Source of the DNA: Gaiellaceae bacterium
GTDB lineage: Bacteria > Actinomycetota > Thermoleophilia > Gaiellales > Gaiellaceae
Reading direction: 5' to 3'
DNA length: 64,000 nt
Assembly (NCBI GenBank): GCA_035999905.1
Contig: DASYGK010000027.1
Span: 11,709 to 75,708 of the forward strand
Below the pieces are notes generated by a model. It had not been told where the DNA came from. It did no database searches and saw only the letters and a list, made by a program, of their open reading frames with translations. The position numbers and the translations under genes were made by a program. How positions within the stretch are numbered: the first letter of the stretch is position 1; each line of letters starts with the position of its first letter. Of the stretch, positions 34,325 through 64,000 are shown in pieces.

Positions 34325-35503
34325 TCAAACGTGCTCGAGACCGACGTAGTTCTCCGCGAGGCTCGTCGCGGCGGCGGTCGAGGTGGTGACGTACCGGAGC
34401 TGTGCGAGCTGGAGCTTCAGGTCGAACGCGTCGGCGTCCGGTGCGTTGTGGAGCATCGTCGTCATCCAGAAGGAGAAATGCTCGGCACGCCACACGCGGC
34501 GCAGACACGCCGCCGAATAGCCGTCGAGCCCGGCGGTGCTGCCGCGGTCGTACCACTCGATCAGCGCGTCGGCGAGCACACGGACGTCGTGCTCGGCGAG
34601 GTTCAGGCCCTTCGCACCGGTCGGAGGGACGATGTGCGCGGCGTCGCCTGCGAGGTAGAGGCGCCCGTGCTGCATCGGCTCGGCGACGAAGCTGCGCATG
34701 CCGGTGACGCTCTTCTCGAGCACGGGCCCTTCCGCGAGCGTCCAGCCGTCGAGGGCCGTGCGCGCCTGCAGCTCCTCCCAGATGCGGTCGTCAGGCCACT
34801 CATCGAGGTCCTCGTCGGGGCGGCACTGGATGTACAGGCGGCTGCGGGTCGGCGAGCGGAGGCTGAGCAGCGCGAATCCGCGCGGGTGGTGCGTGTATAC
34901 GAGCTCGTCGGAGGAGGGCGGGACGTCGGCGAGGATCCCGAGCCAGCCGAACGGGTACTCGCGCTCGAACGTGCGCAGCACCGCTTCGATCGCGGGGCGG
35001 CACACGCCGTGGAAGCCGTCGCAGCCGGCGATCACGTCGCAGTCGATGCGGTGCTCTTCGCCCTCGTGCTCGTAGGTCACGTGCGGGGCCTCGCTCTCGA
35101 GGTCGTGAACCTCGACGTGCGACGTCTCGAAATGCAGCGGCAGCCCGGCGGCGAGACGTGCGGCGATCAGATCCTTGACGACCTCCGTCTGCCCGTAGAC
35201 CACGATCGTCCGCCCGCCGGTGAGCTCGCTCATCGGGATGTAGTGCCGCTCCGAGTCGAACTGAAGATGGATGCCGTGATGGACGATCCCCTCGCGCTGC
35301 AGCCGGTCGGCGACTCCCGCGCGCTCGAGCAGGTCGACCGTGCCCTGTTCGAGCACGCCCGCGCGGACGCGCGCCTCGACGTAGTCCCGGCTGCGATCCT
35401 CGAGCACGACGGCCTCGATGCCGGCGACGTGCAACAGTTGCGCGAGCGTCAGGCCCGCAGGACCGGCGCCGACGATCGCGACCTGCGTCCGGGTTCGGCT
35501 CAC
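34325..35503 (-). CDS. pobA: 4-hydroxybenzoate 3-monooxygenase
   Basis: 392-aa tail of track ORF 34325..35740, from GTG 35503. It has the FAD fingerprint VAIVGAGPAGL, plus GCDGFHG and LAGDAAHIVPPTGAKGLN blocks typical of PobA. The start overlaps the pcaC stop by 4 nt. Confidence 0.9.
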   Translation of the reverse strand: MSRTRTQVAIVGAGPAGLTLAQLLHVAGIEAVVLEDRSRDYVEARVRAGVLEQGTVDLLERAGVADRLQREGIVHHGIHLQFDSERHYIPMSELTGGRTIVVYGQTEVVKDLIAARLAAGLPLHFETSHVEVHDLESEAPHVTYEHEGEEHRIDCDVIAGCDGFHGVCRPAIEAVLRTFEREYPFGWLGILADVPPSSDELVYTHHPRGFALLSLRSPTRSRLYIQCRPDEDLDEWPDDRIWEELQARTALDGWTLAEGPVLEKSVTGMRSFVAEPMQHGRLYLAGDAAHIVPPTGAKGLNLAEHDVRVLADALIEWYDRGSTAGLDGYSAACLRRVWRAEHFSFWMTTMLHNAPDADAFDLKLQLAQLRYVTTSTAAATSLAENYVGLEHV

Positions 35504-35862
35504 GACTCGGCGAGAACCTGCTGCGCGATCGCGAACGCGCGATTGGCGGCCGGCACGCCGCAGTAGATCGCCGCGTGCAGCAGGACCTCTTTGATCTCGT
35601 CCGGGGTCAGTCCGTTTCGGAGCGCTGCGCGCACGTGCATCGCGAGCTCTTCGTGATGGTTGAGTGCGACGAGCGCCGTGAGCGTGACCGCGCTGCGCGT
35701 CTTGCGGTCGAGGCCGGGCCGCGACCAGATCTCGCCCCACGCGTACCGGGTGATCAGATCCTGAAAGTCGGCGGTGAACTCGGTCGTGCCCGCGACGGCG
35801 CGGTCGACGTGCTCGTCGCCGAGCACCTCGCGGCGTACTTGCATTCCCTCGTCGTGGCTCAC
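35500..35862 (-). CDS. pcaC: 4-carboxymuconolactone decarboxylase
   Basis: 120-aa tail of track ORF 35500..37131. It shows the CMD-family pattern (ITRYAWGEIWSRPGLD.KTRS..TL..L......EL..H...AL.NG.T..EI.E.LLH.A.YCG.PAA). Confidence 0.88.
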   Translation of the reverse strand: MSHDEGMQVRREVLGDEHVDRAVAGTTEFTADFQDLITRYAWGEIWSRPGLDRKTRSAVTLTALVALNHHEELAMHVRAALRNGLTPDEIKEVLLHAAIYCGVPAANRAFAIAQQVLAES

Positions 35863-36545
35863 AGATGCTCCTTCAGGAGTTGGTTGAAGGCGTCGGGACG
35901 CTCGACGTTGGCGAGATGTGCAGCGACGTCGATCACCTCGTGCCGTGCGCCGGGGATGCGCGACGCGATCGCGGCGCCCGTGGCGGGCGGCGTCGTGGGG
36001 TCCTCGGCACCCGAGATCACGAGGGTCGGCACGGAGATCGCGGCGAGCTTCGCCTCGACGTCGAAGCGCGCGAGCAGCTCGCAGCAGCGTGCGTACCCCT
36101 CGGGGTCGATCGACAGCATCATCGCGCGGTAGCGCTCGACGTCGTCGAACGCGGGAGTGAACCAGCGCGGCAGGACCAGGTCGGCGACCGGCGCGAGGCC
36201 GCGGGCTCGTACCGTCGCTGCGCGCTCTTCCCAGCCCGCGGGCTCGCCGAAGCGCGGCGCGGTGCATGCGAGCACGAGCCTGTCGATCCGCTCGGGCGCG
36301 TCGAGCGCGAGCCGCATGCCGACGGCGCCGCCGAGCGACAGGCCGACGAAGGAGAACGTGTCGGCGTCGACCGTCTCGAGGACGTGTGCGGCGAGGTCGT
36401 CGACCGACTGCGCGTCCGACACGGGTGCGCCGCCGTGTCCGGGATGCTCGACGGCGATCACCTCGTGCTCCCGGAGTGCCGGAAGCTGCGGGTCCCACAT
36501 CGCCGCGGTCGAGCCGAGCGAGCCGCTGAGGACGACGGTGCTCAC
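35859..36545 (-). CDS. pcaD: 3-oxoadipate enol-lactonase (alpha/beta hydrolase)
   Basis: 228-aa tail of track ORF 35859..36815, from GTG 36545. It has the nucleophile elbow GLSLGG, and its position between pcaB and pcaC fits the call. Confidence 0.85.
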   Translation of the reverse strand: MSTVVLSGSLGSTAAMWDPQLPALREHEVIAVEHPGHGGAPVSDAQSVDDLAAHVLETVDADTFSFVGLSLGGAVGMRLALDAPERIDRLVLACTAPRFGEPAGWEERAATVRARGLAPVADLVLPRWFTPAFDDVERYRAMMLSIDPEGYARCCELLARFDVEAKLAAISVPTLVISGAEDPTTPPATGAAIASRIPGARHEVIDVAAHLANVERPDAFNQLLKEHL

Positions 36546-37702
36546 CCGCGGTAGAGCGCGAGCGCGCGGTCGACGAAGATGCCTGTTGCGCCGAGATAGT
36601 CGTCCGGCCCGGCGACCTCGACGCCGAGTCGGCGTGCCTCCGACAGCGTCTCGTCGGAGACGTTCGTGCGCATGCGGCCGGCATCGACCTGGAGCCCGTC
36701 GAGCGAGCGGCGGATCGCGGCCGCGGCCCCGCCTGCCGCCGCGAGCGCCGTCGAGAGCGCATGCCACTCGGCATGCCACGCGCCGGCCGCGCGCTCGTGC
36801 TCCTGCACGGCGCACTCATAGAGCAGCGCCGCGTTCGCTCGGGCGTGCCGCGCGCAGGCGTCCGCGAGGATCGCGTTCGTCGGGTTGCGCTTGTGCGGCA
36901 TCGTCGACGACGCGCCGCCGGCGGCTTCCCGCACCTCGCCGATCTCCGTCTGCGCGAGCAGGACGATGTCGCGGCCGATCTTCGCGGCCGCGCCGGCGGC
37001 GGCGGCGAGCGCGCCCGCGAGATCGGTGAGAGGCGTGCGGCGCGTGTGCCACGGCAGCGCCGGCTCCTGCAGGCCGAGTGCCTCTGCGTAGAGGCGGAGC
37101 ACCTCGGGGCCGTCGGCGCCGAGCGCCGCAAGCGTCCCGGCCGCGCCGCCGAGCTGCGCCGGAAGCACGACCGCGCGGAGCCGCGTGCGCGCGTCGAGCA
37201 CGCCGACGAGCCAGCCTGCCGCCTTGTACCCGAACGTCGTCGGCACCGCCTGCTGCAGGAGCGTGCGCGCCGCCATCACCGTTCCGCGATGGGCGTCCGC
37301 GAGGCCCGCGCACGCGGCGGCCGCGCCGTCGAGCTCCGCGTCGATCAGCACCAGCGCGCGCTTCGCCACGAGCATCGCCGCCGAGTCGAGGATGTCCTGG
37401 CTCGTCGCACCGTGATGGATGCAGCCGGCGTGCTCCTCGCTCACACCCGCGCGGAGGGCGCGCACGAGCGGCTCGACCGGATTGCCGGCGGAGCGGCCGT
37501 CGCGCGCGAGCTCCCCGGCGTCGTAGCCGCCGGCGTCGAGCGCGGCTGCGACGGCGGCCGCGGCGCCGGCGGGGAGGATCCCCGCGCGCTCCTCGGCGTC
37601 GACGAGCGCGCGCTCCGCGTCGAGCAGCGCTTCGAGCCACGCCCGGTCGGAGAGCGCGGCCGCGAGCTCGTCGGGGACGAAGATCGCCGTGAACGGGCTC
37701 AC
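36542..37702 (-). CDS. pcaB: 3-carboxy-cis,cis-muconate cycloisomerase
   Basis: 386 aa. It carries the fumarate-lyase superfamily signature SSTMPHKRNP and sits in pca operon context. Confidence 0.88.
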   Translation of the reverse strand: MSPFTAIFVPDELAAALSDRAWLEALLDAERALVDAEERAGILPAGAAAAVAAALDAGGYDAGELARDGRSAGNPVEPLVRALRAGVSEEHAGCIHHGATSQDILDSAAMLVAKRALVLIDAELDGAAAACAGLADAHRGTVMAARTLLQQAVPTTFGYKAAGWLVGVLDARTRLRAVVLPAQLGGAAGTLAALGADGPEVLRLYAEALGLQEPALPWHTRRTPLTDLAGALAAAAGAAAKIGRDIVLLAQTEIGEVREAAGGASSTMPHKRNPTNAILADACARHARANAALLYECAVQEHERAAGAWHAEWHALSTALAAAGGAAAAIRRSLDGLQVDAGRMRTNVSDETLSEARRLGVEVAGPDDYLGATGIFVDRALALYRG

Positions 37703-38178
37703 GTGGAGAAGAAGACCGTCTCGTGCAGGCCCTGCATGTGGATGTCGAAGCGCAAGGCCCCATCATCACGCTCCGCGACGAGCAGCGCACGATCTGCCTC
37801 GTCGAGCCCCGCGAGCACGGGGTCGGCCGCGTTCGCGTCCGCCTCGTCGGGGAAGTAGACGCGCGTGCGCTGGTGCTTCAGGAGGCCGCGCGCGAAGACG
37901 TAGACGTCGAGATGCGGCGCCTCGCCGGCCGGCGCCGCCGGCTTGGAGACGACGAACGTGAACTCCCCCGCCGGGTGCGTGCCGCAGCGTCCCCAGAGGC
38001 GCTCGACCGGCTGCCAGACCTCGATCATCCCGTCGACGATCGGCGCGCCGTCGCCGTCGAAGAGCGTGCCGCGCAGGACGATCGCCGCAGGGTCGCCCGC
38101 GGGGACGAGCTCGTTCTCGCTTCTGCGCGTGAGGCCGATCGAGTAGAAGGGGCCGACGGTCTGCGACGGCGTCTTCAC
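37699..38178 (-). CDS. pcaG: Protocatechuate 3,4-dioxygenase alpha subunit
   Basis: 159-aa tail of track ORF 37699..39147, from GTG 38178. TPSQTVGPFY N-terminus and intradiol dioxygenase fold blocks. Confidence 0.9.
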   Translation of the reverse strand: MKTPSQTVGPFYSIGLTRRSENELVPAGDPAAIVLRGTLFDGDGAPIVDGMIEVWQPVERLWGRCGTHPAGEFTFVVSKPAAPAGEAPHLDVYVFARGLLKHQRTRVYFPDEADANAADPVLAGLDEADRALLVAERDDGALRFDIHMQGLHETVFFST

Positions 38179-38894
38179 GACGACGGCTCCTCGACCGGTG
38201 TCGTGCCGCTGCCGCCGCGTCCGAGCACGATGTCCCAGCGATACGCGAGCGCCCACTCCGGCGTCGTCGTCGCGAGGTCGAACTGCGAGACGAGCAGCGC
38301 CCGCGCCTTCGGGTCGCGCACCGAATGGAAGATCGGATCGAACTCGAACAGCGGGTCGCCCGGGAAGTACATCTGCGTGACGACACGCTGCGTGAACGCG
38401 CGGCCGAAGACGGAGAAGTGGATGTGCGCGGGACGCCACGCGTTCTCGTGGTTGCCCCACGGATACGAGCCGGGCTTGATCGTGACGAAGCGGTAGCGGC
38501 CCTCCGCATCCGTGAGCACGCGGCCCGCGCCGGAGAAGTTGGGGTCGAGCGGCGCGGGGTGCTGGTCGACCTCGTGCCGGTAGCGGCCGCCGGCGTTCGC
38601 CTGCCACACCTCGACGAGCGTGCCGGGGATCGGCCGGCCGTCCTCGTCGACGACGCGGCCGCTGACGACGATCCGCTCGCCGAGCGGCTCGCCGTCGTGC
38701 TGCGCGGTGAGGTCGCCGTCGTGCTCCTCGAGCGCGTCCTCGCCGAAGACCGGGCCGTCGGGGGAGTGGAGCTCCTCGGGCAGCGTGACGAGCGGCCGCT
38801 TCGGCGCGCGCAGCCGCGTCGAGCGGTACCCCGGGTAGTCGACCTGGACCTCCGGGCCGAACGAGGGGTCGTCCGGCAGGACGATGTCGCTCAC
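38175..38894 (-). CDS. pcaH: Protocatechuate 3,4-dioxygenase beta subunit
   Basis: 239-aa tail of track ORF 38175..39698, from GTG 38894. Blocks include VEVWQANAGGRYRH, YRF.TIKPG.YPW and WRPAHIHFS (iron ligands). Confidence 0.9.
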   Translation of the reverse strand: MSDIVLPDDPSFGPEVQVDYPGYRSTRLRAPKRPLVTLPEELHSPDGPVFGEDALEEHDGDLTAQHDGEPLGERIVVSGRVVDEDGRPIPGTLVEVWQANAGGRYRHEVDQHPAPLDPNFSGAGRVLTDAEGRYRFVTIKPGSYPWGNHENAWRPAHIHFSVFGRAFTQRVVTQMYFPGDPLFEFDPIFHSVRDPKARALLVSQFDLATTTPEWALAYRWDIVLGRGGSGTTPVEEPSS

Positions 38895-39616
38895 TCGCGC
38901 CCCTTCGACTCGAGCGCGCGCAGCGTCTCGAGCTCGAAGTCGGTCGGCGGAGCCGTGACGCCGACGTCGTCTGCGACAGCCAGCTCCCAGCCGGTCGCGG
39001 CTCGAACGTCGTCGATCTCGACGCCGGGATGCACGCGCACGAGCGTAAGCTCGCCGTCGCGCGGCTCGAGCGTGCCCAGATCGGTGACGACGACGCGGAC
39101 GCGGTCGCCGAGGCTCGTCTTGAAGTCGAGCTCCTCGACGAACGCACGCGGCGTCTGCCGCAGCATCACGAACACGTCGGCGACCGATGTCGCGATCTCC
39201 GGTGCGCCGCCGCCGCCGGGAAGCCGCACGCTCGGACTGTCGTAGTCGCCGATCACGGTGCTGTTGAGATTGCCATGACGGTCGATCTGCGCGGCGCCGA
39301 GGAAGCCGACGTCGATCCGGCCCGCCTGGAGCCAGTACGCGAACATCTCCGGGACGGAGACGACGGCGTCCGCGGTCTCGGCAAGCTCGCCGTCGCCGAT
39401 CGAGAGCGGAAGCTTGGTCGGCTTCGCGCCGATCGTGCCGCTCTCGTACACGAGCACGCAGTTCGGCGCGTGCGTGCGGCGCGCGAGATTCGCCGCGACG
39501 CTCGGCAGGCCGATCCCGACGAAGCAGACGTCGCCGTTCGCGAGGCGCCGCGCCGCCTCGACGGCCATCATCTCGTCGGATGTGAACGTCAGCGGCTGCT
39601 CGGAGGTCGCGGTCAT
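38891..39616 (-). CDS. pcaJ: 3-oxoadipate:succinyl-CoA transferase subunit B
   Basis: 241-aa tail of track ORF 38891..40003, from ATG 39616. It is a CoA-transferase family I beta subunit (VYESG active-site Glu region, GAAQID.HGN.N). Confidence 0.85.
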   Translation of the reverse strand: MTATSEQPLTFTSDEMMAVEAARRLANGDVCFVGIGLPSVAANLARRTHAPNCVLVYESGTIGAKPTKLPLSIGDGELAETADAVVSVPEMFAYWLQAGRIDVGFLGAAQIDRHGNLNSTVIGDYDSPSVRLPGGGGAPEIATSVADVFVMLRQTPRAFVEELDFKTSLGDRVRVVVTDLGTLEPRDGELTLVRVHPGVEIDDVRAATGWELAVADDVGVTAPPTDFELETLRALESKGRE

Positions 39617-40425
39617 GCAGCGACGGCCCCGAGCACGTGCTCCTGCATCCACGCCGTGAATGTCGCACGGTCGCGGCTGATCCCGTCCCACGCCGCATAG
39701 AACTCGTTGTCGCGGTCGTAGTACCCGTGCGCGTACGACGGCCGCGCGCCGCCCGGTGCCTCGGCGACCACGTCGATCACCCACGTCGGCAGCACGACCG
39801 CGCCGGGACGCGGCTCGAGCTCGTCGACGACCTCTTCGACCGTGACTATCGACCGCGCGGACGCGAGCACTGTCTCCTTCTGCACGCCGGTGATTCCCCA
39901 CAGCTGCACGTTCCCCCGACGGTCTGCCTGCTGCGCGTGGATGATGCCGACGTCCGGCCGCAGCGCCGGGACGGCCGAGAGCTCCTCGCCGGTGAACGGG
40001 CACGTGACCGTGGCGACGCGCGTGCGCGCAACGAGATCGGTGCCTGCGTAACCGCGCAGGACGCCGAACGGCAGCGCGGCCGCTCCGGCCGCGTACGCCG
40101 CCGCCATGCCGGCATGCGAGTGCTCCTCGAGCTCGAGAGGGGCGGGCCAGCCGTGCTCGACCGCGTCTCGCAGGCGGTGCAGCGAGCCGACGCCCGGGTT
40201 GCCGCCCCAGCTGAAGACGAGCTTCCGCGCCACGCCCATGCCGATCATCTGGTCGTAGACGAGGTCGGGCGTCATGCGGACGAGCGTCAGCTCGCGCAGG
40301 CGCTGCCGGATCAGCTCGTGACCGGCGGCGTTCGGGATCAGGTGCGTGAAGCCCTCGAGCGCGACGGTGTCCCCGTCGTGCACGAGCTCGCGTACGGCCT
40401 CCGAGAGAGTGACGATCTCCGCCAT
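39613..40425 (-). CDS. pcaI: 3-oxoadipate:succinyl-CoA transferase subunit A
   Basis: 270 aa. CoA-transferase alpha-subunit pattern. It is the first gene of the overlap-coupled pca operon. Confidence 0.85.
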   Translation of the reverse strand: MAEIVTLSEAVRELVHDGDTVALEGFTHLIPNAAGHELIRQRLRELTLVRMTPDLVYDQMIGMGVARKLVFSWGGNPGVGSLHRLRDAVEHGWPAPLELEEHSHAGMAAAYAAGAAALPFGVLRGYAGTDLVARTRVATVTCPFTGEELSAVPALRPDVGIIHAQQADRRGNVQLWGITGVQKETVLASARSIVTVEEVVDELEPRPGAVVLPTWVIDVVAEAPGGARPSYAHGYYDRDNEFYAAWDGISRDRATFTAWMQEHVLGAVAA

Positions 40426-40969: not shown

Positions 40970-42277
40970 ATGAGATCGACGAAGATCAAAATCGGTGTTG
41001 CGTTCGCCGCCAGCGGGCTTCTCGCGCTGATGCTGACGGCGGCCGCCATCGGTGCGGGAAGCGCGGCACGCGTCGGCTCCGGAACGGCGTCCGCGACGAA
41101 GTCCGTGTGCGGGCTGGGGACCGGGAAGAAGGCAACCGGAACGCCGATCAAGCTCGGCGGCATCGACATGCTCATCCCCGGCGTGGACTTCACCACGATC
41201 GGCAAGGTCGCGCAGGCGTACTTCAACTGCGTCAACGACAACGGCGGCATTCACGGTCGCCCGATCAAGTACATCCTCTACAACGAGCAGCTCAACCCGG
41301 CGCAGGAAGCGTCGCTCGCCAGGAAGCTGATCCAGAGCGACAAGGTCGTCGGGATCGTCGGGAACACGAGCTTCGCCGAGTGCGGGACGAACGCCAAGTA
41401 CTACGCGAGCAAGGGCTTCGTCGTGATCGGCGCGGGCGTCCAGGCGGAGTGCTACAGCACGCCGGCGTTCGCCGAGGTGAACAACGGGCCGCGGTACAGC
41501 AACGTCGGTGCGGCGCAGGCACTCATCAAGGCCGGCGTGAAGAAGCTCGCGATTGCATCGCCGGACACGATCTCCGCGTACGCGGACGGCGGGCCGGCTC
41601 TCGTCGCGCAGAAGGCGGGTATCCCGGTCAAGATCTTCCCGACCCACCTGCCGGTCACCGACGCCACCTCGCAGCTGCTGCAGATGTACCAGTTCGCCGG
41701 TGAAGGCGGAGGCATCCTGCTCGACTTCACCCCCGATACCGCTCCGGCGTTCATGAAGGCCGCCGAGGCGCAGAACATCGTCGACAAGGTGAAGTGGGGC
41801 TCGTCCACCCCGATCGCGAACACGTTCATGGCCGGGCAGTTCTCGCCCGCGTTCGACGGTCATCTGTGGATCGACAACGAGTTCAGCAACGTCGACCCGA
41901 CCGTCGGACCCGACTCGGCGCTGATGTTCCAGGTGCTCAAGAAGTACGCGCCGACGATCGCTCCGCAGGCGTTCGGGCAGATGGGCTTCCTCGACGGGAA
42001 GTTCGCCGTCAACGCGCTGATGAGCGTCAAGGGCGCGATCACCGCGAAGTCGTACAACGCGGCGGTCAGGGCGCTCAAGAACCAGAAGAGCGACATGTTG
42101 TGCGCCCCCTTCTACGTGGGGAACCTCGCGTACCACATCCCGAACAACTCGGACATCATCGTCGACTACAAGAACGGCGCCGTCGTCGTCAAGCAGACGT
42201 GCTTCCGGATTGAGGCGGTCGACAAGGCGATCAGCCAGACGCGGGTCTGGGAGAAGAAGTTCCACCTGCAAGGCTGA
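40970..42277 (+). CDS. ABC transporter substrate-binding protein, LivJ/Leu-Ile-Val-binding (type I PBP) family
   Basis: 435 aa. GAGGAGAG lies before ATG 40970. It has a signal peptide with a hydrophobic core (GVAFAASGLLALMLTAAAIGAGSA) and LivJ-like blocks (IKLGGI, GG..GR.I, VVGIVG). Confidence 0.85.
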   Translation: MRSTKIKIGVAFAASGLLALMLTAAAIGAGSAARVGSGTASATKSVCGLGTGKKATGTPIKLGGIDMLIPGVDFTTIGKVAQAYFNCVNDNGGIHGRPIKYILYNEQLNPAQEASLARKLIQSDKVVGIVGNTSFAECGTNAKYYASKGFVVIGAGVQAECYSTPAFAEVNNGPRYSNVGAAQALIKAGVKKLAIASPDTISAYADGGPALVAQKAGIPVKIFPTHLPVTDATSQLLQMYQFAGEGGGILLDFTPDTAPAFMKAAEAQNIVDKVKWGSSTPIANTFMAGQFSPAFDGHLWIDNEFSNVDPTVGPDSALMFQVLKKYAPTIAPQAFGQMGFLDGKFAVNALMSVKGAITAKSYNAAVRALKNQKSDMLCAPFYVGNLAYHIPNNSDIIVDYKNGAVVVKQTCFRIEAVDKAISQTRVWEKKFHLQG

Positions 42278-42313
42278 TCGCGGAGTGACGATCAGGGTGT
42301 CCGGAGGTGTCGA

Positions 42314-54814: not shown

Positions 54815-54818
54815 GGTG

Positions 54819-57639: not shown

Positions 57640-58358
57640 AGCTGCTCGAGCCACGCCGCCGCGGCCGACGCGATGCGCGGCTCGACGCCGAGCTCTTCGA
57701 GGTACGCGGCCGCCGCCTGCATCTCGTCGACGCGCCGGGCCGCATGCGCGTGGCTGCCCGACACGAGCCGCTCGAGCAGCGGCTCCCCGAGCACCGCGGC
57801 GATCTCGTCGCGGATGCGGTCCTCGGCGCCCGCCGCGCGCGCCGCCTCGAGGCTCTCGATCGCGGCGGCCGCCATCCCCTTCATGAAGACGCTCCGCAGC
57901 AGCTTCAGGCCCGCCGCGTCGCCGGGCTCCGGCCCGACGACCTCGACCGGCATCCCGAGCGGGACGAGGAGCTCGGCGAAGCGCGCCGCTCCCGCGCCCG
58001 ACGCGAGCGCCGGCGTCGCGAGCCCCGTGCTCGGGACGATGCCGAGCAGCGCGACGTCGGCGAACGGCACCGGCAGCGCCGCCGCGAGCTCGCGCTTGAG
58101 CGCCGGTGCGCTCGTGTTGAGATCGGCGTACACCGCGCCCGCGTCGAGCGCGCCCCCGACCTCGCGTGCGACGTCGGCCGCGACCGCCGCGGCGTTCACG
58201 CTCAGCACGGCCTCGGCGCCCGCGACCGCGTCCGCCGCGCTCTCGACTCCCTCGACCCGGTGTGCGGGATCCCAGCCGCGCACGACGCAGCCTGCCGCGG
58301 CGAGGTCGGCGGCGAGTCGTCCGCCCGCCTCCCCGAGCCCGAGGACGGCGACCCGCAT
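57636..58358 (-). CDS. NAD(P)-binding oxidoreductase (6-phosphogluconate-dehydrogenase-like N-domain plus DUF1932-like C-domain)
   Basis: 240-aa tail of track ORF 57636..59345, from ATG 58358. Rossmann N-terminus MRVAVLGLGEAGGRLA, then LKLLRSVFMKGM in the helical C-domain. Confidence 0.6.
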   Translation of the reverse strand: MRVAVLGLGEAGGRLAADLAAAGCVVRGWDPAHRVEGVESAADAVAGAEAVLSVNAAAVAADVAREVGGALDAGAVYADLNTSAPALKRELAAALPVPFADVALLGIVPSTGLATPALASGAGAARFAELLVPLGMPVEVVGPEPGDAAGLKLLRSVFMKGMAAAAIESLEAARAAGAEDRIRDEIAAVLGEPLLERLVSGSHAHAARRVDEMQAAAAYLEELGVEPRIASAAAAWLEQL

Positions 58359-58975
58359 CAGCCCTCGAAGAGCTCGCGCAGCCCGTTCACGTCGTACGAC
58401 AGCTCGCCCGCCGCGTAGCGCTCGCGCAGCGCACGCTCGCGCTCCGCACGCTCGCGCGCGAGCGGCAGCACCTCGTCGATCCGCTCGGCCGGCAGCGCCA
58501 TCGCGCCGTCGCAGTCGAGCACGACGAGGTCGCCCGGCTTGATCTCCGCGCCGCCGACGACGACCGGCACGTCGAGCTCGCCCTGCTCGCCCTTCGTCGC
58601 ACCCGACGCGCGCACGAAGCGCGCCCAGATCGGCAGGCCGATCGCGGCGAGCTCGTCCAGGTCGCGCACCGCGCCGTCGACGAGGATCCCCGCGACGCCG
58701 CGCACCTGCGCCTGCGTCGCCAGGAGCTCCCCGACGAGCGCAACGGCGACGGGCTCGAAGCTCGTGAGCACGAGCACGTCGCCCGGCTCCGCGTGCGCGA
58801 TCGCCGCGTGCACCATCGAGTTGTCGCCGGAGGCGTTGAGAGCGATCCGCGCGGGCCCTGCGACGCGCGAGCCGGGCACGACCTGCTTCAGCGGGAGGTC
58901 GACGACGCCGATCCGGCCGGCCGCCTCGTGCACGGTCGCAACGCCGAGCTCGGCCAGCTCCGCGTAGTCGGTCAC
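58358..58975 (-). CDS. RraA-family class II aldolase (4-carboxy-4-hydroxy-2-oxoadipate / HMG aldolase, oxaloacetate decarboxylase type; LigK/GalC-like)
   Basis: 205 aa. RraA fold blocks are present (GDNSMVH.AI....GDVLV, GELLAT.A...GVAGILVDGAVRD, P.WAR). Confidence 0.78.
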   Translation of the reverse strand: MTDYAELAELGVATVHEAAGRIGVVDLPLKQVVPGSRVAGPARIALNASGDNSMVHAAIAHAEPGDVLVLTSFEPVAVALVGELLATQAQVRGVAGILVDGAVRDLDELAAIGLPIWARFVRASGATKGEQGELDVPVVVGGAEIKPGDLVVLDCDGAMALPAERIDEVLPLARERAERERALRERYAAGELSYDVNGLRELFEG

Positions 58976-59685
58976 AGCGCGTCGACGACGACGGGGATCT
59001 CGCGCTCGAACGCCTCCGCGTACGCGACGTCCTTACGTCCGGAGATGCGCCGCGCGTGGTTCGCGCGATGCTCGCCGCGCTCGGAGTAGTACTGCTTGAG
59101 GTAGTTCTGCGCGCCCATCGCGTCCATCGCCGCCACCTTCTTCTTCCACACCGGCGTGACGTCGACGAACGTCGTCGGCACGAAGCCGCAGAGCTCTGGC
59201 TGGTGCGGCTCGAAGAGCAGCAGCTCCGGCGGCGCGACCGTCTTGAACGCGCTCGCGACGCCGGCGCCGCTCGCGAGCTGCCGCGCCTGCACCGTCGCGT
59301 CGTGAGCGACGCCGTGATCGGGATTGAATGGGTCGCGCGCCGCATGCGTGAGCATCACGTTCGGGGCGAGCTCGCAGATGAGGTCGCGCAGCCGGTCGAC
59401 CGCCGCCGCGTCGAGCACGAGCGGATAGTCCCCGAGATCGAAGCTGCTGAACGTCGCTCCGAGCGCGGCCGCCGCCGTCGTCGCCTCGCCGCGGCGGATC
59501 TCCTTCACGCGCTCCTCGGTCTGGCCAGGCTCCTTCCAGAGCTCGCCCGACTCGCCGCGCTCGCCGTAGGACAGCGCGACGACGTGCGCGGTCCCGCCGT
59601 CCTCGACGAAGCGCGCGATCGCGCCGCCCGCCCGCCAGACGAAGTCGGCGGCGTGCGCGCTCACCACGAGCATCGACCTAGGCAC
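58972..59685 (-). CDS. PIG-L/LmbE-family zinc hydrolase-fold protein (GalB-type 4-oxalomesaconate hydratase candidate)
   Basis: 237 aa. PIG-L motifs are present (LVVSAHAADF..RAGG, NPDHGVAH). It overlaps the aldolase gene by 4 nt. Confidence 0.75.
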   Translation of the reverse strand: MPRSMLVVSAHAADFVWRAGGAIARFVEDGGTAHVVALSYGERGESGELWKEPGQTEERVKEIRRGEATTAAAALGATFSSFDLGDYPLVLDAAAVDRLRDLICELAPNVMLTHAARDPFNPDHGVAHDATVQARQLASGAGVASAFKTVAPPELLLFEPHQPELCGFVPTTFVDVTPVWKKKVAAMDAMGAQNYLKQYYSERGEHRANHARRISGRKDVAYAEAFEREIPVVVDAL

Positions 59686-60568
59686 CGGCGAGCAGCCTCG
59701 TGTTCGTCACGGCCATCACCCGCACATCATCCTCGCTGAAGCCCGCCTCGAGCAGCCGATCCGCCATCAGCGCGAGCCCGTCCTCGACCGGCGGATTCTG
59801 CACCTGGCCGAGATCGGTCGAGAGGACGTTACGCTCCGGGCCGGTCGCGCGGATCGACTCGAACGTCTGCTCCCACGAGACCTTCCCGCTGTGGATCGGC
59901 GCGAAGCAGCGCTCGAGCAGCGCGCCCTTCTCCGCGAGCGCGCGCTGCTCGTCGACCGGAACGCCCTGGGTCGGATAGTCCGGATGCGTGACGACGACGT
60001 GCCGCACGCCCGCCGCGAGCGCACCGTCGACGACGTCGTGGATCTCCGCCCGGCCGAGGTGCCCGGTCGCGAGCACGAGCTCGTGCTGGGCCACGACGGC
60101 GTACACCCGCGCGAGCGCGCCGTCCTCGAGGGCGACCGGCGGCATGCCGACCCCCGCCTCCGCGAGCGAGTCCTGCACCTTCCGCCACGCCGGCGGCTTC
60201 GCGGGCTTCGGTCCGTCCTCGCTCGCCTCGTTCTCGGAGTCGACGGTGGGCAGCCAGACGATCCGGCCGCCTTCGCGCGCCAGGATCTCGACCGCCTGCG
60301 CGTTCAGGCCGCCGACGCCGTTGTTGAGCGTGATCGCGCCGAGGGCGTCGACGCCCGGGACCGCGCCGCGGACGACCGCCGCGCGCTCCGCCGTCGGGAC
60401 GTAGTGCGACTTGAGCACGAAGCCCGCGAGCCCGACCGCCTCGAACCGGCGTGCGAGCCCGAGGTCGTCGATCCGGCGCTTCGCGAGATCGGGCTCGACG
60501 TGCACGTGCAGGTCGTACCCGCCGCGGACGAGCTCGCGTGCGCGCGACGAGCACTCAGTGTCCGGCAA
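59678..60568 (-). CDS. Metal-dependent hydrolase-like TIM-barrel protein (amidohydrolase/PHP-like, uncharacterised family)
   Basis: 296 aa. It has an N-terminal DLHVHVEPD motif and later ATGHL and VVTHPDYP His blocks. The only in-frame start is TTG 60568, which overlaps the dioxygenase 3' end by 14 nt. Confidence 0.55.
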   Translation of the reverse strand: MPDTECSSRARELVRGGYDLHVHVEPDLAKRRIDDLGLARRFEAVGLAGFVLKSHYVPTAERAAVVRGAVPGVDALGAITLNNGVGGLNAQAVEILAREGGRIVWLPTVDSENEASEDGPKPAKPPAWRKVQDSLAEAGVGMPPVALEDGALARVYAVVAQHELVLATGHLGRAEIHDVVDGALAAGVRHVVVTHPDYPTQGVPVDEQRALAEKGALLERCFAPIHSGKVSWEQTFESIRATGPERNVLSTDLGQVQNPPVEDGLALMADRLLEAGFSEDDVRVMAVTNTRLLAGA

Positions 60569-61529
60569 GAAGCTCCTCTTCCTGCGCGACGGGCGGCGAG
60601 CCCTTGATGTGGAACGACGCGACCGTCTGCATGCCCCACGCCTGGCCCTTCGCGCGCTCGGCCTGCGACCAGACGACCGGCTCGTGCGCGGGGTCGAAGA
60701 TGAGATAGCCGCCGGCGCACACCTCGATGCGGTTGCCGCCCGGCTCCCACGTGTAGAGGAAGAATGTCTGTTGGATCGCGTGCTTGTGCGGGCCCGACTC
60801 CATCACGATCCCGTGCTCGAGGAAGATGTCCGCCCCGCGCAGCACGTCCTCACGCTGGTCGACGAAGAACGCGATGTGGTGCAGCCGGCCGCGCGTCCCC
60901 GTCATGTCGCGCGTGTACGTCACGTCGTACGACTTCTGGTTCGACGCGAGCCACACGCCCGCCTCGCGGCCGTCGTCGAGCACGATCTGCTCCGTGAGGC
61001 GCAGTCCGAGGTTCGCCTCGAGGAACGCGCGGTTCTCACCGGGGTCGACGGCGAGGAAGTTGATGTGGTCGAGATGGCGCACCCCGACGCCGCGGCCGGG
61101 ATACCGCTGCGGCTGGTTCTTGAGCGACGGCTTCAGCTCCGGTGGCGCGACATAGCGCTCCGACTCGTAGAAGAGCTCGAAGCGGTGGCCGTCGGGGTCG
61201 AGGAAGCTGTAGGCGCGCCCGTGCCCGAGGTCGCCGTCGTGCCACTCGCCGCCCGCTCCGTTCGCCTCGAGCGCGGCGACGCGGCGGTCGAGCGCCTCGG
61301 GGCTGTGCGTGCGATACGCGAGGTGGCCGACGCCCGACGAGGGCGCGTGCGTGAGCTTCAGCGACGCGCGCTCGTAGTCGCCGAAGCAGCGGAGGTACAC
61401 CGAGTCGCCGCGCTCGGCCTCGACCTCCATGCCGAGGATCCCGCGGAAGTAGTGGAGGCTCTCGTCCGGCTTCGGCGTCAGCAGCTCGACGTGCGACAGG
61501 TGCGCGAGGTCGCGAACGGTCTCGGTCAT
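60555..61529 (-). CDS. Type I (vicinal oxygen chelate) extradiol ring-cleavage dioxygenase, catechol 2,3-dioxygenase family
   Basis: 324-aa tail of track ORF 60555..61829, from ATG 61529. It is a two-domain VOC protein with metal ligands in HLDHINF, RLHHIAFFV and YTWEPGGNRIE. Confidence 0.88.
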   Translation of the reverse strand: MTETVRDLAHLSHVELLTPKPDESLHYFRGILGMEVEAERGDSVYLRCFGDYERASLKLTHAPSSGVGHLAYRTHSPEALDRRVAALEANGAGGEWHDGDLGHGRAYSFLDPDGHRFELFYESERYVAPPELKPSLKNQPQRYPGRGVGVRHLDHINFLAVDPGENRAFLEANLGLRLTEQIVLDDGREAGVWLASNQKSYDVTYTRDMTGTRGRLHHIAFFVDQREDVLRGADIFLEHGIVMESGPHKHAIQQTFFLYTWEPGGNRIEVCAGGYLIFDPAHEPVVWSQAERAKGQAWGMQTVASFHIKGSPPVAQEEELLAGH

Positions 61530-62971
61530 GCGAGGTAGCCGTGCGGATCGGCATGCAGGTGGTCGGCGAGCCGGCTCGCGAGCGCCATGATCGTCAGCGA
61601 CGGGTTGACCGAGAGCGTCCGCGGGACGACCGAGCCGTCGCCGACGTAGAGCCGTTTCACGTCCCACGACTGCGCGTCCGCGTCGACGACCGAGCGCTCG
61701 GGGTCGCTGCCCATCCGGCAGGTCCCCTGGATGTGCGTCGTGATCAGCCCGGTCCAGAGCACTTCCGTCGCGCCGGCGGCGCGCAGCGCGTCGCGGCTGA
61801 AGTCGAGGGCGCCGTCGATCCGCTTCCACTCTCGGTCGTTGAACGCCGCCTCGAACGACTCGGCGCCGCTCTCGTCGACGTGGACGCTGCCGTTGTTCTC
61901 GTCGTTGACCATCGCGAGCACGCCGACCCAGCGCCGGAAGCCGCGCGCGGCCTCGACGAGCTTCGGCCCCCAGAGCGGGCCGTTCTCGTCCTCGAGCGTC
62001 GTCGCGAAGCCGATCGGATCCTGGATCGTCGCCGCCTCGACGACGAAGCCGCCGTCCTCGTCGTGCTGGTGGTCCATCGCGTGCGTCGTGATCGGGTAGA
62101 CCATGTGCGTGTCCTGCGGCTCGTCGAAGAGCCCATAGACGAGGCGCGCAGGGTGGAAGCCGAGGTTGCGGCCGACGAGCCGGCTCGACGGGCTGTCGGG
62201 CAGCCCGGAGCGCATCAGGAGCTGCGGCGTGTTGAGCGTGCCGGCAGCGACGACGACCGCGCCCGCGTCGACACGGCGCAGCGCGCCGTCTGGCCCGACG
62301 TACTCGACTCCCGTGGCCTCACCGTTCTCGACCACGACGCGTTCGACGCGGCAGTCGGCGCGCAGCTCGAGGCCGCCGGTGACCCAGGCGTCCTGGATGT
62401 AGGTGTTCTGCGTCGACTTGCCGGAGTTCGTCGGGCAGCCCTGGAGGCACGAGCCGCAACTCATGCACGTCGTGTCGGTGTACGAGCGGACGGACTCGAG
62501 CGTGGAGCCGAGCGCCCGGAATCCCGGTTCGACGGTGCGCACGCTCTTCGGCCAGTCGTTGCGCTCGCGCACCCCGAGCCGCTGCTCGACGCGGTCGTAG
62601 TGCGGCGCGAGGTCGCTCTCGCCGAACGGCGAACCGCCGGTGGTAGCCAGCCCGCTCGCCGCGTGCCATTTCTCGAAGTCCTTCGCGTGCGCGCGCAGAG
62701 CGACCTTCGTGTTGATCGTCGTCGAGCCGCCGACGCAGCGGCCGGCGACGAGCCCGACGGCGCCGCGCGCGCCGCCGTCGATCAGCGCGAAGCGGATCGG
62801 CCACCAGAGATCGTGCGCCGCCTTCGCCTCCCAGCGCGTGAAGTCGGCGGCTGTCTTGTGCGGGCCGACCTCGAGGAGCAGGACCTTCCGGCCGCGCTCC
62901 GCGAGCTCGCCGGCGACGACGCCGCCGCCCGCGCCCGATCCGACCACGACGACGTCGAAGCGCTCGCTCAT
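61526..62971 (-). CDS. GMC-family FAD oxidoreductase
   Basis: 481-aa tail of track ORF 61526..63889, from ATG 62971. FAD fingerprint DVVVVGSGAGGGVVAGELA, GGSTTIN, and a C-terminal GTCRMG...VVD....W.V..LYV.DGSV.P block. Confidence 0.85.
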   Translation of the reverse strand: MSERFDVVVVGSGAGGGVVAGELAERGRKVLLLEVGPHKTAADFTRWEAKAAHDLWWPIRFALIDGGARGAVGLVAGRCVGGSTTINTKVALRAHAKDFEKWHAASGLATTGGSPFGESDLAPHYDRVEQRLGVRERNDWPKSVRTVEPGFRALGSTLESVRSYTDTTCMSCGSCLQGCPTNSGKSTQNTYIQDAWVTGGLELRADCRVERVVVENGEATGVEYVGPDGALRRVDAGAVVVAAGTLNTPQLLMRSGLPDSPSSRLVGRNLGFHPARLVYGLFDEPQDTHMVYPITTHAMDHQHDEDGGFVVEAATIQDPIGFATTLEDENGPLWGPKLVEAARGFRRWVGVLAMVNDENNGSVHVDESGAESFEAAFNDREWKRIDGALDFSRDALRAAGATEVLWTGLITTHIQGTCRMGSDPERSVVDADAQSWDVKRLYVGDGSVVPRTLSVNPSLTIMALASRLADHLHADPHGYLA

Positions 62972-63330
62972 GCGATGCCGAGGTACGACCAGTCCTTCGC
63001 GAGCCGCGTCGCGAGGGGCGTGTTGAAGTCGATCTCGGCCCAGGCGCCCTCGACGTCGACTCCGGGTGCGACGAAATCGCTGTAGAACGCCTCGATCGCG
63101 AGCGCGCGGACGTAGAGGAAGTCCGGTGTCCCGACGTGGTCTCCGACGTCGCCGGAGGCGACCGTCGCGAAGGCGGCGAGCGTGCCTGCGCGCATGCCGT
63201 CGTCCATCCGCGCGAGCAGCGCGTCGAGGTACACCGCGGGCCTGACGCGGGCCGACCCCGGGACGATCGCGTCGCAGACGCGCTCGACCGATTCCGCCGT
63301 CGCCGCGTCCAGCACCTTGAGGTCGACCAT
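62968..63330 (-). CDS. Small subunit partner of the GMC oxidoreductase (gluconate 2-dehydrogenase subunit-3-like)
   Basis: 120-aa tail of track ORF 62968..63699, from ATG 63330. It overlaps the GMC gene by 4 nt. No twin-arginine signal is visible. The family assignment is tentative and rests on size, context and the A.E.FYSD block. Confidence 0.5.
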   Translation of the reverse strand: MVDLKVLDAATAESVERVCDAIVPGSARVRPAVYLDALLARMDDGMRAGTLAAFATVASGDVGDHVGTPDFLYVRALAIEAFYSDFVAPGVDVEGAWAEIDFNTPLATRLAKDWSYLGIA

Positions 63331-63370
63331 CGCCCGATGATAAATCAGGCAGACTGATATCGGAAATGCG

Positions 63371-64000
63371 ATGCAGCCCATGACCCCGTTCCGCGAACAG
63401 CTCACGCGCCCCGGCGCGTTCGTGGTCGCGGCCGAGGTCGTCACGAGCCGCGGGCTGATCACGGCCGACAGCAGCCGCCGCGTGCTGGAGATCGCGCGGG
63501 AGCTCGCGGCCGACGAGCGCATCGACGTGCTCTCGATCACCGACAACCCCGGCGGCCACGCGATGCTCGCGCCCGACACGCTCGGAACCGACCTCGTCTC
63601 GCGCGGGCAGGAAGTCGTGATCCACCTCTCGTGCAAGGACTGGAACCGCAACGCGCTCGAGAGCCGCGGCTGGAAGCTCGGGTCGGAGGGCTTCGACAAC
63701 GTGCTCGCGCTGTCGGGCGACTACCCGGTCACGGGGCACAAGGGGCTCGCGGCGCCCGTGTTCGACATCGACTCCGTCGGGCTGCTCAGCCTCTTCTCGG
63801 AGATGAACGACGGTTTGCGCGACACGCGCAAACCGGGCACGCGCCTCGACAGGACGAATTTCTTCCTCGGCGGCGTCGTCACGAACCACAAGCGGCGCGA
63901 GCGCGAGGTGATGCCGCAGTACTTCAAGCTGAAGAAGAAGGTCGAGGCCGGCGCGCGGTTCGTGATCAACCAGATCGGCTGGGACGTGCGCAAGGACGAC
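63371..64000 (+). CDS. metF: Methylenetetrahydrofolate reductase (MetF family), 3'-truncated by the window edge
   Basis: Open frame from ATG 63371 (or ATG 63380) to the window end. It is absent from the track because no stop is reached. Blocks FVVAAEVVTSRG, DVLSITDNPGG, VIHLSCKDWNRN, NVLALSGDYP and FFLGGVV are MTHFR-like. Confidence 0.78.
   Translation, partial: MQPMTPFREQLTRPGAFVVAAEVVTSRGLITADSSRRVLEIARELAADERIDVLSITDNPGGHAMLAPDTLGTDLVSRGQEVVIHLSCKDWNRNALESRGWKLGSEGFDNVLALSGDYPVTGHKGLAAPVFDIDSVGLLSLFSEMNDGLRDTRKPGTRLDRTNFFLGGVVTNHKRREREVMPQYFKLKKKVEAGARFVINQIGWDVRKDD

Follow-up and report, generated by a model that had tools for sequence, protein, structure and literature searches.

Does a single stretch of bacterial DNA carry a dedicated route from lignin-derived aromatic acids to central metabolism, and does it hold two different systems for opening the ring? 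This question is raised by positions 34325 to 64000 of a 64,000-nucleotide stretch of Gaiellaceae DNA (the window; GenBank contig DASYGK010000027.1), in which an earlier note had seen genes for an intradiol and a putative extradiol ring-cleavage route together with uptake, demethylation and one-carbon recycling functions. The window corresponds to C68:11709-75708 of a metagenome-assembled genome of 2.66 Mb (G000 in our numbering), which consists of 150 contigs and is 88% complete. Our analysis points to a catabolic island for lignin-derived aromatic acids that would lead from uptake to central metabolism by way of two ring-fission systems, a reading to which we assign a probability of roughly 0.65. 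Homology gives firm grounds for the more general description of the region, that of a funnel for lignin monomers equipped with two ring-fission systems, and the division of substrates between the two systems is plausible.

The high G+C content of the window (71%) swamps raw lists of open reading frames with spurious frames, and genes were called by codon bias after training on the long frames with the highest third-position GC content. Families were identified by scans with NCBIfam and Pfam models as well as by searches against solved structures in the PDB. These calls place 31 tightly packed genes between 34325 and 64000, with overlaps between neighbors of mostly 1-14 nt, and arrange them in six transcription units that we designate A-F (Table 1). 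Each item of gene content listed in the earlier note is matched by family models, none of the 31 genes is clearly unrelated in function, and the proposed funnel for methoxylated aromatics derived from lignin is coherent in its gene content, as judged from family models and close homology.

The ortho route is found in unit A. Both subunits of protocatechuate 3,4-dioxygenase, along with PcaB, PcaC and PcaD, are recognized by models, which covers ring cleavage and the three following steps of the protocatechuate branch of the beta-ketoadipate pathway. The scores of PcaB and PcaD lie just under the respective cut-offs; nonetheless, the best-scoring model for each is that of its own family, and the called start of pcaD is probably short, the true start lying some codons upstream. 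The gene order CoA-transferase A, CoA-transferase B, pcaH is also seen in G097 and G055.

The second ring-cleavage system is encoded by unit E. Here a type I (VOC) extradiol dioxygenase is accompanied by a GalB-type hydratase and by an RraA-type aldolase for CHA (4-carboxy-4-hydroxy-2-oxoadipate), and these latter two are the hydratase and the GalC/LigK-type aldolase expected of a gallate pathway. The intradiol system of the earlier note corresponds to PcaHG, and its putative extradiol system to a type I enzyme accompanied by proteins of the GalB and RraA types. The meta operon does not contain a LigB-type gallate dioxygenase (GalA/DesB), the enzyme in the operon being the VOC protein, nor does it contain members of the LigAB, LigC (Gfo/Idh/MocA), LigI or LigJ (Amidohydro_2) families. 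A NAD_binding_2 + DUF1932 protein completes the core of the operon together with a member of the DUF6282 family; the DUF1932 gene stands beside the module in 6 of the 7 relatives with examined flanks, the exception being G067.

Table 1. Transcription units, genes and candidate control sites of the island. Positions are those of the window; L017 positions are given for features that reach or lie past its end.
Feature	Position	Strand	Evidence or remark
Unit A: CoA-transferase A and B, pcaH, G, B, D, C, pobA	40425 to 34325	minus	
pobA, 4-hydroxybenzoate 3-monooxygenase	34325..35503	minus	TIGR02360 560 bits (cut-off 539)
pcaC, 4-carboxymuconolactone decarboxylase	35500..35862	minus	TIGR02425 185 bits (cut-off 156)
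pcaD, 3-oxoadipate enol-lactonase	35859..36545	minus	TIGR02427 245 bits (cut-off 256, just under); match from model position 15
pcaB, 3-carboxy-cis,cis-muconate cycloisomerase	36542..37702	minus	TIGR02426 351 bits (cut-off 356, just under)
pcaG, protocatechuate 3,4-dioxygenase alpha subunit	37699..38178	minus	TIGR02423 153 bits (cut-off 126)
pcaH, protocatechuate 3,4-dioxygenase beta subunit	38175..38894	minus	TIGR02422 346 bits (cut-off 296)
CoA-transferase subunits B (38891-39616) and A (39613-40425), in pcaIJ position	38891..40425	minus	Pfam CoA_trans 130 and 71 bits
16-nt box TCCCGTTCGTCAAGAC, two copies	40581-40596 and 40637-40652	plus	between pca operon and importer genes (units A/B)
Unit B: binding protein + LivHMGF-like importer	40970-45808	plus	
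ABC importer: Peripla_BP_6 (40970-42277), LivH-like (42314-43243), LivM-like (43288-44331), LivG-like (44328-45044), LivF-like (45041-45808)	40970..45808	plus	family models
Unit C: demethylase, TIM protein, E1a, E1b, E1a, E1b, benzoylformate-decarboxylase homologue, alcohol dehydrogenase	54663 to 45805	minus	
Zn-dependent alcohol dehydrogenase	45805..46815	minus	AdhP-like, 179 bits
Benzoylformate-decarboxylase homologue, thiamine diphosphate enzyme	46812..48419	minus	NF005485 460 bits (cut-off 493); PDB benzoylformate decarboxylases E 2e-92
Two diverged tandem E1 alpha/beta pairs, 2-oxoacid/acetoin dehydrogenase type	48420..52411	minus	family models
Xylose-isomerase-like TIM-barrel protein	52408..53286	minus	PF01261 80 bits
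Tetrahydrofolate-dependent aryl O-demethylase, LigM type	53296..54663	minus	LigM model 639 bits (cut-off 580); DesA model 700 bits (under cut-off of 800); PDB LigM 5x1i E 7e-162
16-nt box TCCCGTTCGTCAAGAC, third copy, followed by inverted repeat GTTCCA-N5-TGGAAC	54799..54814	plus	between units C/D
Unit D: IclR + ligase	54899-57639	plus	
IclR-family regulator, closest to PcaR/PcaU/PobR group	54899..55663	plus	TIGR02431 237 bits (cut-off 285)
Acetoacetyl-CoA-synthetase-family ligase	55663..57639	plus	NF002937 850 bits (cut-off 639); TIGR01217 756 bits (cut-off 521)
Unit E: small protein, GMC, VOC, DUF6282, PIG-L, RraA, DUF1932	63330 to 57636	minus	
NAD_binding_2 + DUF1932 protein, putative dehydrogenase	57636..58358	minus	Pfam; PDB relatives uncharacterised
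RraA-type CHA aldolase	58358..58975	minus	NF006731 185 bits (cut-off 179); PDB 3noj E 4e-43
GalB-type (PIG-L fold) 4-oxalomesaconate hydratase	58972..59673	minus	PDB 5cgz E 8.5e-61, residues 2-231 of 233 aligned
DUF6282, amidohydrolase-superfamily TIM barrel, putative lactone or ester hydrolase	59678..60568	minus	PF19799 191 bits
Two-domain type I (VOC) extradiol dioxygenase, AphC clade	60555..61529	minus	TIGR03211 ('catechol 2,3-dioxygenase') 316 bits (cut-off 320)
GMC-family flavin oxidoreductase	61526..62971	minus	GMC_oxred_N and GMC_oxred_C domains
120-aa protein of no known family, coupled to GMC gene	62968..63330	minus	no Pfam match
Palindrome ATCAG-N5-CTGAT	63344..63358	plus	40-nt divergent gap between meta operon and MTHFR gene; sole such site in genome
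Unit F: MTHFR-like gene, interrupted by window end	from 63371	plus	
MTHFR + DUF5981 protein, 514 aa	63371..64000 (continues L017:371-1915)	plus	interrupted by window end
p-Hydroxycinnamoyl-CoA hydratase/lyase	L017:1939-2787		just past window; NF006588 458 bits (cut-off 276)
Hydratase/lyase + MarR regulator	L017:1939-3218		directly behind MTHFR fusion

With respect to the ring opener itself, the closest solved relative is PDB 9wgj (407 bits), which is labelled 'catechol 1,2-dioxygenase'; we found no relevant paper naming this entry, and it gives no substrate clue. The nearest characterised relative is AphC of Rhodococcus jostii RHA1 (PDB 7q2a; 265 bits, 40% identity, TM score 0.85), a 4-alkylcatechol dioxygenase (PMC9062432). 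Catalytic residues were checked by alignment with AphC, taking the residues and numbering from the same paper. The metal ligands H155, H218 and E269 are present, as are the equivalents of His249 and Tyr258. The position of the catalytic second-sphere His200 (AphC and HPCD numbering), in turn, is occupied by Tyr201, and a Tyr is also found there in 9wgj. This Tyr is shared by all genomes that carry the window's version of the module and by G055, whereas the other version found in the order has His.

Taken together, these comparisons bear on the possibility that the meta operon acts on some other catechol, alkyl- or side-chain-bearing as for AphC, with the GalB-type and RraA-type enzymes serving a different hydroxy-oxo-acid, in which case it would be neither a gallate nor a protocatechuate route. 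AphC is indeed the nearest characterised homologue, the score on the 'catechol 2,3-dioxygenase' model is only just short of the cut-off, and a GMC oxidoreductase with its small subunit in the same operon suggests side-chain oxidation. However, the operon lacks hydrolases, hydratases and aldolases of the types that act in alkylcatechol meta pathways, the GalB-type enzyme aligns over its full length with a characterised 4-oxalomesaconate hydratase, and the aldolase passes the CHA aldolase model. Moreover, two residues of the hydrophobic alkyl pocket of AphC are polar in the island enzyme (Met205 to Thr and Leu296 to Gln). We consider an alkylcatechol-type role to be improbable on these grounds. 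The catechol 2,3-dioxygenase of Bacillus ligniniphilus (PMC8671467) was also tried as a comparison and dropped, being a CatE-like enzyme outside the clade of the VOC protein.

The DUF6282 protein has no sequence relative in the PDB. Its AlphaFold2 model (pLDDT 96.9) most closely resembles PTE-homology proteins, dipeptidases, dihydroorotase and pyrone-dicarboxylate hydrolases, with TM scores of 0.55-0.65, and an alignment of 68 diverse homologues reveals a conserved H-x-H, H, H, D pattern of the kind that binds metal. The superfamily fold is all that it has in common with LigI (TM 0.55 to 4d8l). These modelled matches would place the protein at the level of the superfamily and do not distinguish a lactonase from other hydrolases.

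Building from these assignments, a path through the island can be proposed, in which the PobA, demethylation, side-chain-cleavage and PcaHG steps and the final hydratase and aldolase steps are reasonably well established by family models and close homology, and the others are predictions. PobA would hydroxylate 4-hydroxybenzoate, the LigM-type enzyme, which depends on tetrahydrofolate (THF), would demethylate methoxylated acids, with a methylenetetrahydrofolate reductase (MTHFR)-type enzyme recycling methyl-THF, and the hydratase/lyase just past the window would cleave the side chains of hydroxycinnamoyl-CoA thioesters. Protocatechuate would then be opened by PcaHG and carried along the beta-ketoadipate route by PcaB, PcaC, PcaD and the CoA-transferase. 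The VOC dioxygenase may open gallate and/or 3-O-methylgallate, which PcaHG cannot use and which could arise from syringate through the combined action of a DesA-type demethylase on contig C15 and the LigM-type demethylase of the island. Further along this branch, DUF6282 may hydrolyse a lactone or ester and DUF1932 may be a dehydrogenase; the GalB-type enzyme would convert 4-oxalomesaconate to 4-carboxy-4-hydroxy-2-oxoadipate, and the RraA-type aldolase would split the latter into pyruvate and oxaloacetate. The GMC oxidoreductase with its small subunit, the alcohol dehydrogenase, the benzoylformate-decarboxylase homologue, the E1 pairs and the ligase of the acetoacetyl-CoA-synthetase (AACS) type are predicted to form an upper pathway for aryl C2/C3 side chains.

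The substrate of the meta operon is the point at which a different proposal deserves most weight. The set of five core genes is compatible with a protocatechuate 4,5-type route and equally compatible with syringate branches like those of Sphingobium sp. SYK-6, in which the products of 3-O-methylgallate cleavage pass via a pyrone to 4-oxalomesaconate. The operon could thus encode a complete, non-orthologous protocatechuate 4,5-cleavage route, with the VOC enzyme in place of LigAB, DUF1932 in place of LigC, DUF6282 in place of LigI, the GalB-type enzyme in place of LigJ and the RraA-type enzyme in place of LigK. Two fates in parallel would then be open to protocatechuate, with gallate-type compounds at most side substrates. 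In its favor, the five genes present in nearly all versions of the module match five chemical steps, DUF6282 shares the amidohydrolase fold with solved pyrone-dicarboxylate hydrolases, and DUF1932 has a NAD-binding domain. The lower pathway of SYK-6 is, moreover, reported to be common to vanillate and syringate (bioRxiv 10.1101/2020.07.27.224295).

The distribution of the module among related genomes points in the other direction. In a survey of 101 genomes of the order, searched with four proteins, the same genomes have the GalB-type hydratase (found in 18), the DUF6282 orthologue and the LigM-type demethylase (found in 17), and the sole mismatches fall in three bins that are 55-66% complete. 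All genomes of the order with the module or the LigM-type demethylase also have pcaH, which is found without the module in about 16 further genomes, including 10 of the 12 members of one genus in another family as well as G097 (these tallies of 18, 17 and about 16 include G060, which is left out of the co-location and later counts). The two other genomes of the genus of G000, 92% and 95% complete, have neither the meta module nor the demethylase. A 4,5-cleavage route for protocatechuate would therefore be redundant in every genome of the order that carries the module, and the module follows the THF demethylases rather than pcaH. In addition, the 4-substituent pocket of AphC directs proximal 2,3-cleavage, which on protocatechuate would, by our own mapping, give a 5-carboxy and not the required 4-carboxy product.

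We accordingly regard a second, meta-type fate for protocatechuate as an unlikely although serious contender. A role of the meta operon in the breakdown of syringyl units is favored because the module tracks the THF demethylases, because pcaHG is always present to deal with protocatechuate, and because the second THF demethylase of the genome, on contig C15, passes the DesA (syringate O-demethylase) cut-off (836 bits against 800). The division suggested in the earlier note, with protocatechuate going through PcaHG and gallate-type compounds through the meta operon, fits the joint occurrence of GalB-type and LigM-type genes, the constant presence of pcaH and the DesA-type second demethylase, and the assignment of substrates within it is plausible.

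Several points weigh against the island as we interpret it. All functions are assigned from homology and gene context. The five core meta genes map one to one onto the steps of protocatechuate 4,5-cleavage, which would make the two routes redundant, and in a gallate route no dehydrogenase or lactone hydrolase would be required. AphC, the nearest characterised homologue of the VOC protein, acts on 4-alkylcatechols, our literature search found no type I enzyme that acts on gallate or protocatechuate, and a PrpF-type 4-oxalomesaconate isomerase (GalD/LigU; PF04303) was not found in the 88%-complete genome. On the ortho side, the CoA-transferase subunits score weakly on the PcaJ and PcaI subfamily models (61 and 34 bits), and a pcaF thiolase was not found in the island, the best thiolase of the genome lying on another contig and reaching 543 bits against a cut-off of 597. 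Finally, the roles of the E1 pairs, the TIM-barrel protein and the AACS-type ligase are unexplained.

In terms of co-location, the earlier note had described the presence of both routes in one contiguous block as uncommon. Across the phylum this holds: among 401 sampled genomes, the GalB-type gene occurs in 15 and pcaH in 71 (a tally that includes G366 and G489), and although 13 of the 14 genomes outside the order with a GalB-type gene also have pcaH, the two genes lie within 50 kb of each other in only 2 of these 13. Within the order, however, pcaH is no more than 50 kb from the GalB-type gene in 9 of 17 genomes (G000, G008, G033, G038, G043, G079, G091, G076 and G013), and in the others the two are mostly on different contigs. 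Possession of both routes by one genome is thus the rule wherever the module occurs, and side-by-side placement is a habit of the order. In G013, whose bin is 72% complete, the pcaH gene beside the meta module (G013:C5:351232-351588) is truncated and has two in-frame TGA codons, and the ortho route looks degenerate there.

Conservation of the individual modules was followed by tblastn of the window proteins on fetched flanking regions. A string consisting of the small protein, GMC, VOC, DUF6282, GalB-type, RraA-type and DUF1932 genes, the AACS-type ligase gene, and the demethylase-TIM-E1a2-E1b2-E1a1-E1b1 series is present at 70-93% identity in G023, G013 and G008, which belong to another family, and in G091, which belongs to the same family as G000. 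Specifically, the 120-aa protein is 71-79% identical and in the same position in these four genomes, the AACS-type ligase gene adjoins the demethylase gene in each of them, and the E1a2-E1b2-E1a1-E1b1 order is maintained at 78-93% identity, always downstream of the demethylase and TIM-barrel genes. The hydratase/lyase and MarR genes flank this string in G008, G023 and G013, and orthologues of the MTHFR fusion are found beside the module in G091, G079, G059 and G042. A second, divergent version of the module (53-69% identity) is present in seven genomes of the window's family; it comprises DUF6282, GalB-type, RraA-type, VOC and in most cases DUF1932 genes and lacks the GMC and small-protein genes. 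As to whether the block is conserved or patchy, then, the modules do occur together in several related genomes, but their order varies and the block is a mosaic.

This mosaic character is also evident in phylogenies. A maximum-likelihood tree of concatenated VOC, DUF6282, GalB-type and RraA-type proteins from 14 genomes, unrooted and without an outgroup, groups G000 and G091 with five genomes of another family, f3 (SH-aLRT 100), both of them lying outside the f3 clade itself, and separates the seven other genomes of the window's family as a clade over a long branch. In a PcaH tree of 21 genomes, by contrast, G000 stands with G097, G055 and G091 of its own family (support 98). G055 and G091 are of one genus and carry different versions of the module, and of the island G097 has only the CoA-transferase-pcaHGBDC-pobA operon, in the same arrangement and accompanied by an IclR gene. 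The simplest reading would be an exchange between families in which a demethylase and meta block came to lie with a pca operon that had been inherited; old paralogy followed by differential loss is a less simple alternative. The module tree, being unrooted, does not distinguish between the directions of transfer.

The differing phylogenetic histories of the modules, as well as their different operator motifs (see below) and the origin of the genome as a bin of 150 contigs, might suggest that independent and functionally unlinked catabolic operons merely lie side by side here, possibly through mis-assembly. This explanation seems very remote in light of the recurrence of the same modules, in varying order, in the independent assemblies G008, G033, G038, G043, G079, G091 and G055. 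No shift in GC content or codon bias marks the joints between modules, and the pca/importer and demethylase regions share a box that is found nowhere else in the genome at zero mismatches.

This 16-nt box, TCCCGTTCGTCAAGAC, has three sites in the window at up to two mismatches and six at up to three, where 0.88 would be expected at the latter threshold, and exact matches of its 14-nt core are confined to the island within the genome. It is conserved upstream of the demethylase gene in G023, G013 and G008, where it is followed by an inverted repeat GTTCC-N7-GGAAC, and in G091 the binding-protein gene has a related site upstream. It was not found before the pca operons of G097 and G055 and so does not serve generally as a pca operator in the family, and it is not present at unit E. 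The gap between the meta operon and the MTHFR gene instead carries the palindrome ATCAG-N5-CTGAT. One such match in the window is not significant alone, and the weight of this site comes from its conservation: it recurs at the corresponding position in G091, G008, G023 and G013 despite differing flanks, with a MarR gene conserved nearby. The box would thus serve as an IclR site for the pca, importer and demethylase units, and the palindrome as a MarR-type site for the meta and MTHFR units. From these motifs we conclude that the island probably comprises at least two regulons and not the single, apparently co-regulated block of the earlier note, given that the box is limited to the pca/importer and demethylase/iclR regions and the meta operon has a different conserved palindrome. 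The gap at 40426-40969 that separates the pca operon from the importer genes is, at 544 nt, a long one by the standards of this genome; it carries, in addition to both box copies, the octamer TCAAGGCA, which also occurs before the box on the demethylase side. The IclR regulator encoded in the island is 66% identical to the one beside the pca operon of G097, a genome of the same genus.

With respect to the genes around the two ring-cleavage systems, several are more elaborate than the earlier note had supposed. The predicted metF does have an MTHFR domain, but it is in fact a 514-aa fusion with DUF5981 ('MTHFR C-terminal') that runs past the window end, and its 38 bits on the Pfam MTHFR model mark it as an atypical MetF. 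Similarly, the demethylase operon does begin with a LigM-type demethylase, but it also carries the TIM-barrel protein, the two E1 pairs, the benzoylformate-decarboxylase homologue and the Zn-dependent alcohol dehydrogenase. No E2 or E3 gene lies beside the E1 pairs, which together with the decarboxylase homologue amount to three thiamine diphosphate systems in unit C. A CoA ligase in the aromatic sense was not borne out, the protein instead passing acetoacetate-CoA ligase models. In G055, the GMC, small-protein, alcohol dehydrogenase, AACS-type ligase, benzoylformate-decarboxylase homologue and importer genes stand beside pcaHG and the CoA-transferase, and it is this arrangement that leads us to read them as upper-pathway genes and not as meta steps. 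In SYK-6, the GMC oxidoreductase HpvZ reportedly initiates the steps by which beta-hydroxypropiovanillone becomes vanilloyl acetic acid, a beta-keto acid, and by analogy it is plausible that the AACS-type ligase activates a beta-keto acid of this type. The benzoylformate-decarboxylase homologue recalls, again by analogy, the 4-hydroxybenzoylformate decarboxylases of aryl-C2 catabolism. Orthologues of the importer are found beside the cluster in G091, G008 and G055; its binding protein has no PDB relative at E 1e-5 and gives no ligand inference.

Comparison with known systems indicates which features of the island are familiar. Like SYK-6 (LigM, DesA, MetF/LigH; LigAB, DesB, DesZ; LigC, LigI, LigU, LigJ, LigK), it combines LigM/DesA-type THF-dependent O-demethylases and a nearby MTHFR gene with hydroxycinnamate side-chain cleavage and a meta-type lower pathway that ends in a CHA aldolase yielding pyruvate and oxaloacetate. 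In contrast to SYK-6, the ring opener of the island is a type I VOC enzyme and not LigB-type, its hydratase is PIG-L (GalB) and not LigJ, DUF6282 and DUF1932 take the places of LigI and LigC, and LigU was not found in the genome. SYK-6 is not known to have a PcaHG route beside its vanillate/syringate pathway. The gal cluster (GalA, GalD, GalB, GalC) and pca genes of Pseudomonas putida KT2440 likewise unite an ortho protocatechuate route and a meta gallate route in one genome, with a GalB-type hydratase, the enzyme solved as PDB 5cgz, and an RraA-type aldolase. The KT2440 routes, however, are at separate loci, its GalA is LigB-type, its GalD (PrpF) isomerase has no counterpart that we could find in the island's genome, and the demethylase, DUF6282 and DUF1932 are lacking there. 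Actinobacterial pca clusters (R. jostii RHA1, Streptomyces) also combine pcaHG, B, D and C, a CoA-transferase gene and an IclR regulator gene, and differ in that pcaD and pcaC are fused as pcaL, whereas they are separate in the island.

Clusters with a 4-hydroxybenzoylformate decarboxylase for aryl-C2 lignin fragments are known in R. jostii RHA1 and Pseudomonas fluorescens. The island resembles these in that its pobA and pca genes have a benzoylformate-decarboxylase homologue and dehydrogenases as neighbors, but here the homologue's operon also includes a THF demethylase, a TIM-barrel protein and two E1 pairs that lack an E2, a combination for which we found no published precedent. The meta operon differs from the AphC system of RHA1 in the Tyr that replaces His200 and in its company, the VOC gene sitting with GalB-type and RraA-type genes and not with an alkylcatechol lower pathway. 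Ortho- and meta-cleavage do operate side by side on lignin-derived compounds in RHA1 (PMC9062432). Our literature searches returned nothing pertinent on PIG-L proteins in connection with extradiol enzymes or on Gaiellales in connection with protocatechuate.

Soils are rich in Gaiellales, of which almost none are in culture. The combination of uptake, THF-dependent demethylation, side-chain cleavage and two ring-fission routes in one island suggests that these bacteria consume lignin-derived monomers, including syringyl units that lie beyond the beta-ketoadipate route. The supercluster as such is an organisational feature that recurs in the order and not a new mechanism, and the main interest lies in the meta module and the unexplained thiamine enzymes. 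What is new is the mosaic history, the two operator motifs, the extension of the island to the hydratase/lyase and MarR genes, and the finding that the meta module is strictly coupled to THF demethylases. Because the families of the module are labelled 'catechol 2,3-dioxygenase', 'DUF6282' and 'PIG-L deacetylase' in databases, metagenome pathway predictions miss it. If its substrates are confirmed, the module would supply a new enzyme set for gallate or protocatechuate cleavage as well as parts for lignin valorisation. In its most far-reaching form, which is speculative and on balance doubtful, the island would provide uncultured soil Gaiellales with a self-contained route from phenylpropanoid fragments to the tricarboxylic acid cycle based on undescribed activities: a VOC-fold dioxygenase for gallate/3-O-methylgallate (or protocatechuate) that lacks the canonical His200, a DUF6282 pyrone or ester hydrolase, a DUF1932 dehydrogenase, and E2-less E1 enzymes that shorten aryl keto side chains together with the AACS-type ligase, the demethylase and meta part being mobile between families as a unit.

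The island extends from 34325 to about 66200 in window numbering (~32 kb), that is, 2.2 kb past the window end. Its left border is sharp, with a histidine kinase, ABC exporters and GGDEF/c-di-GMP enzymes upstream; the upstream 34 kb were considered as part of the island and rejected, as their content is signalling and exporter genes. To the right of the MarR gene lie genes for a Macro domain protein, a PTE-family protein, AdhP, L-2-hydroxyglutarate oxidase and an AidB-like protein, none with an obvious link to the island.

Related loci are found elsewhere in the genome. On contig C15, the locus of the DesA-type demethylase (L019, 3591-13417) includes separate ABC importer genes, a GMC oxidoreductase resembling choline dehydrogenase and a paralogue of the TIM-barrel protein with 64% identity, such that a TIM-barrel protein accompanies both demethylase paralogues. 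The named close homologues of DUF6282 are from Gaiellaceae or Gaiellales metagenome bins, with thousands more from soil-type metagenomes. In the protein library, a 616-aa match (P0124) consists of an HpcH/HpaI aldolase domain fused to DUF6282, and other long forms with GntR/FCD domains may be gene-call read-throughs. The only LigAB pair of the genome is on contig C107, directly followed by a DUF6282 paralogue of 35% identity in an operon with an HpcH-type aldolase; judging from this operon and the aldolase fusion, DUF6282 appears to be tied to ring cleavage at other loci too. This third ring-cleavage locus (L018, 3846-11480, minus strand) encodes an HpcH/HpaI-type aldolase, a DHO_dh-like protein, a cytochrome P450, LigA, LigB, the DUF6282 paralogue, a histidine phosphatase, and proteins with PPDK_N and PEP-utiliser domains, and its kinase-plus-phosphatase pair is reminiscent of acetovanillone systems (Acv/Apk).

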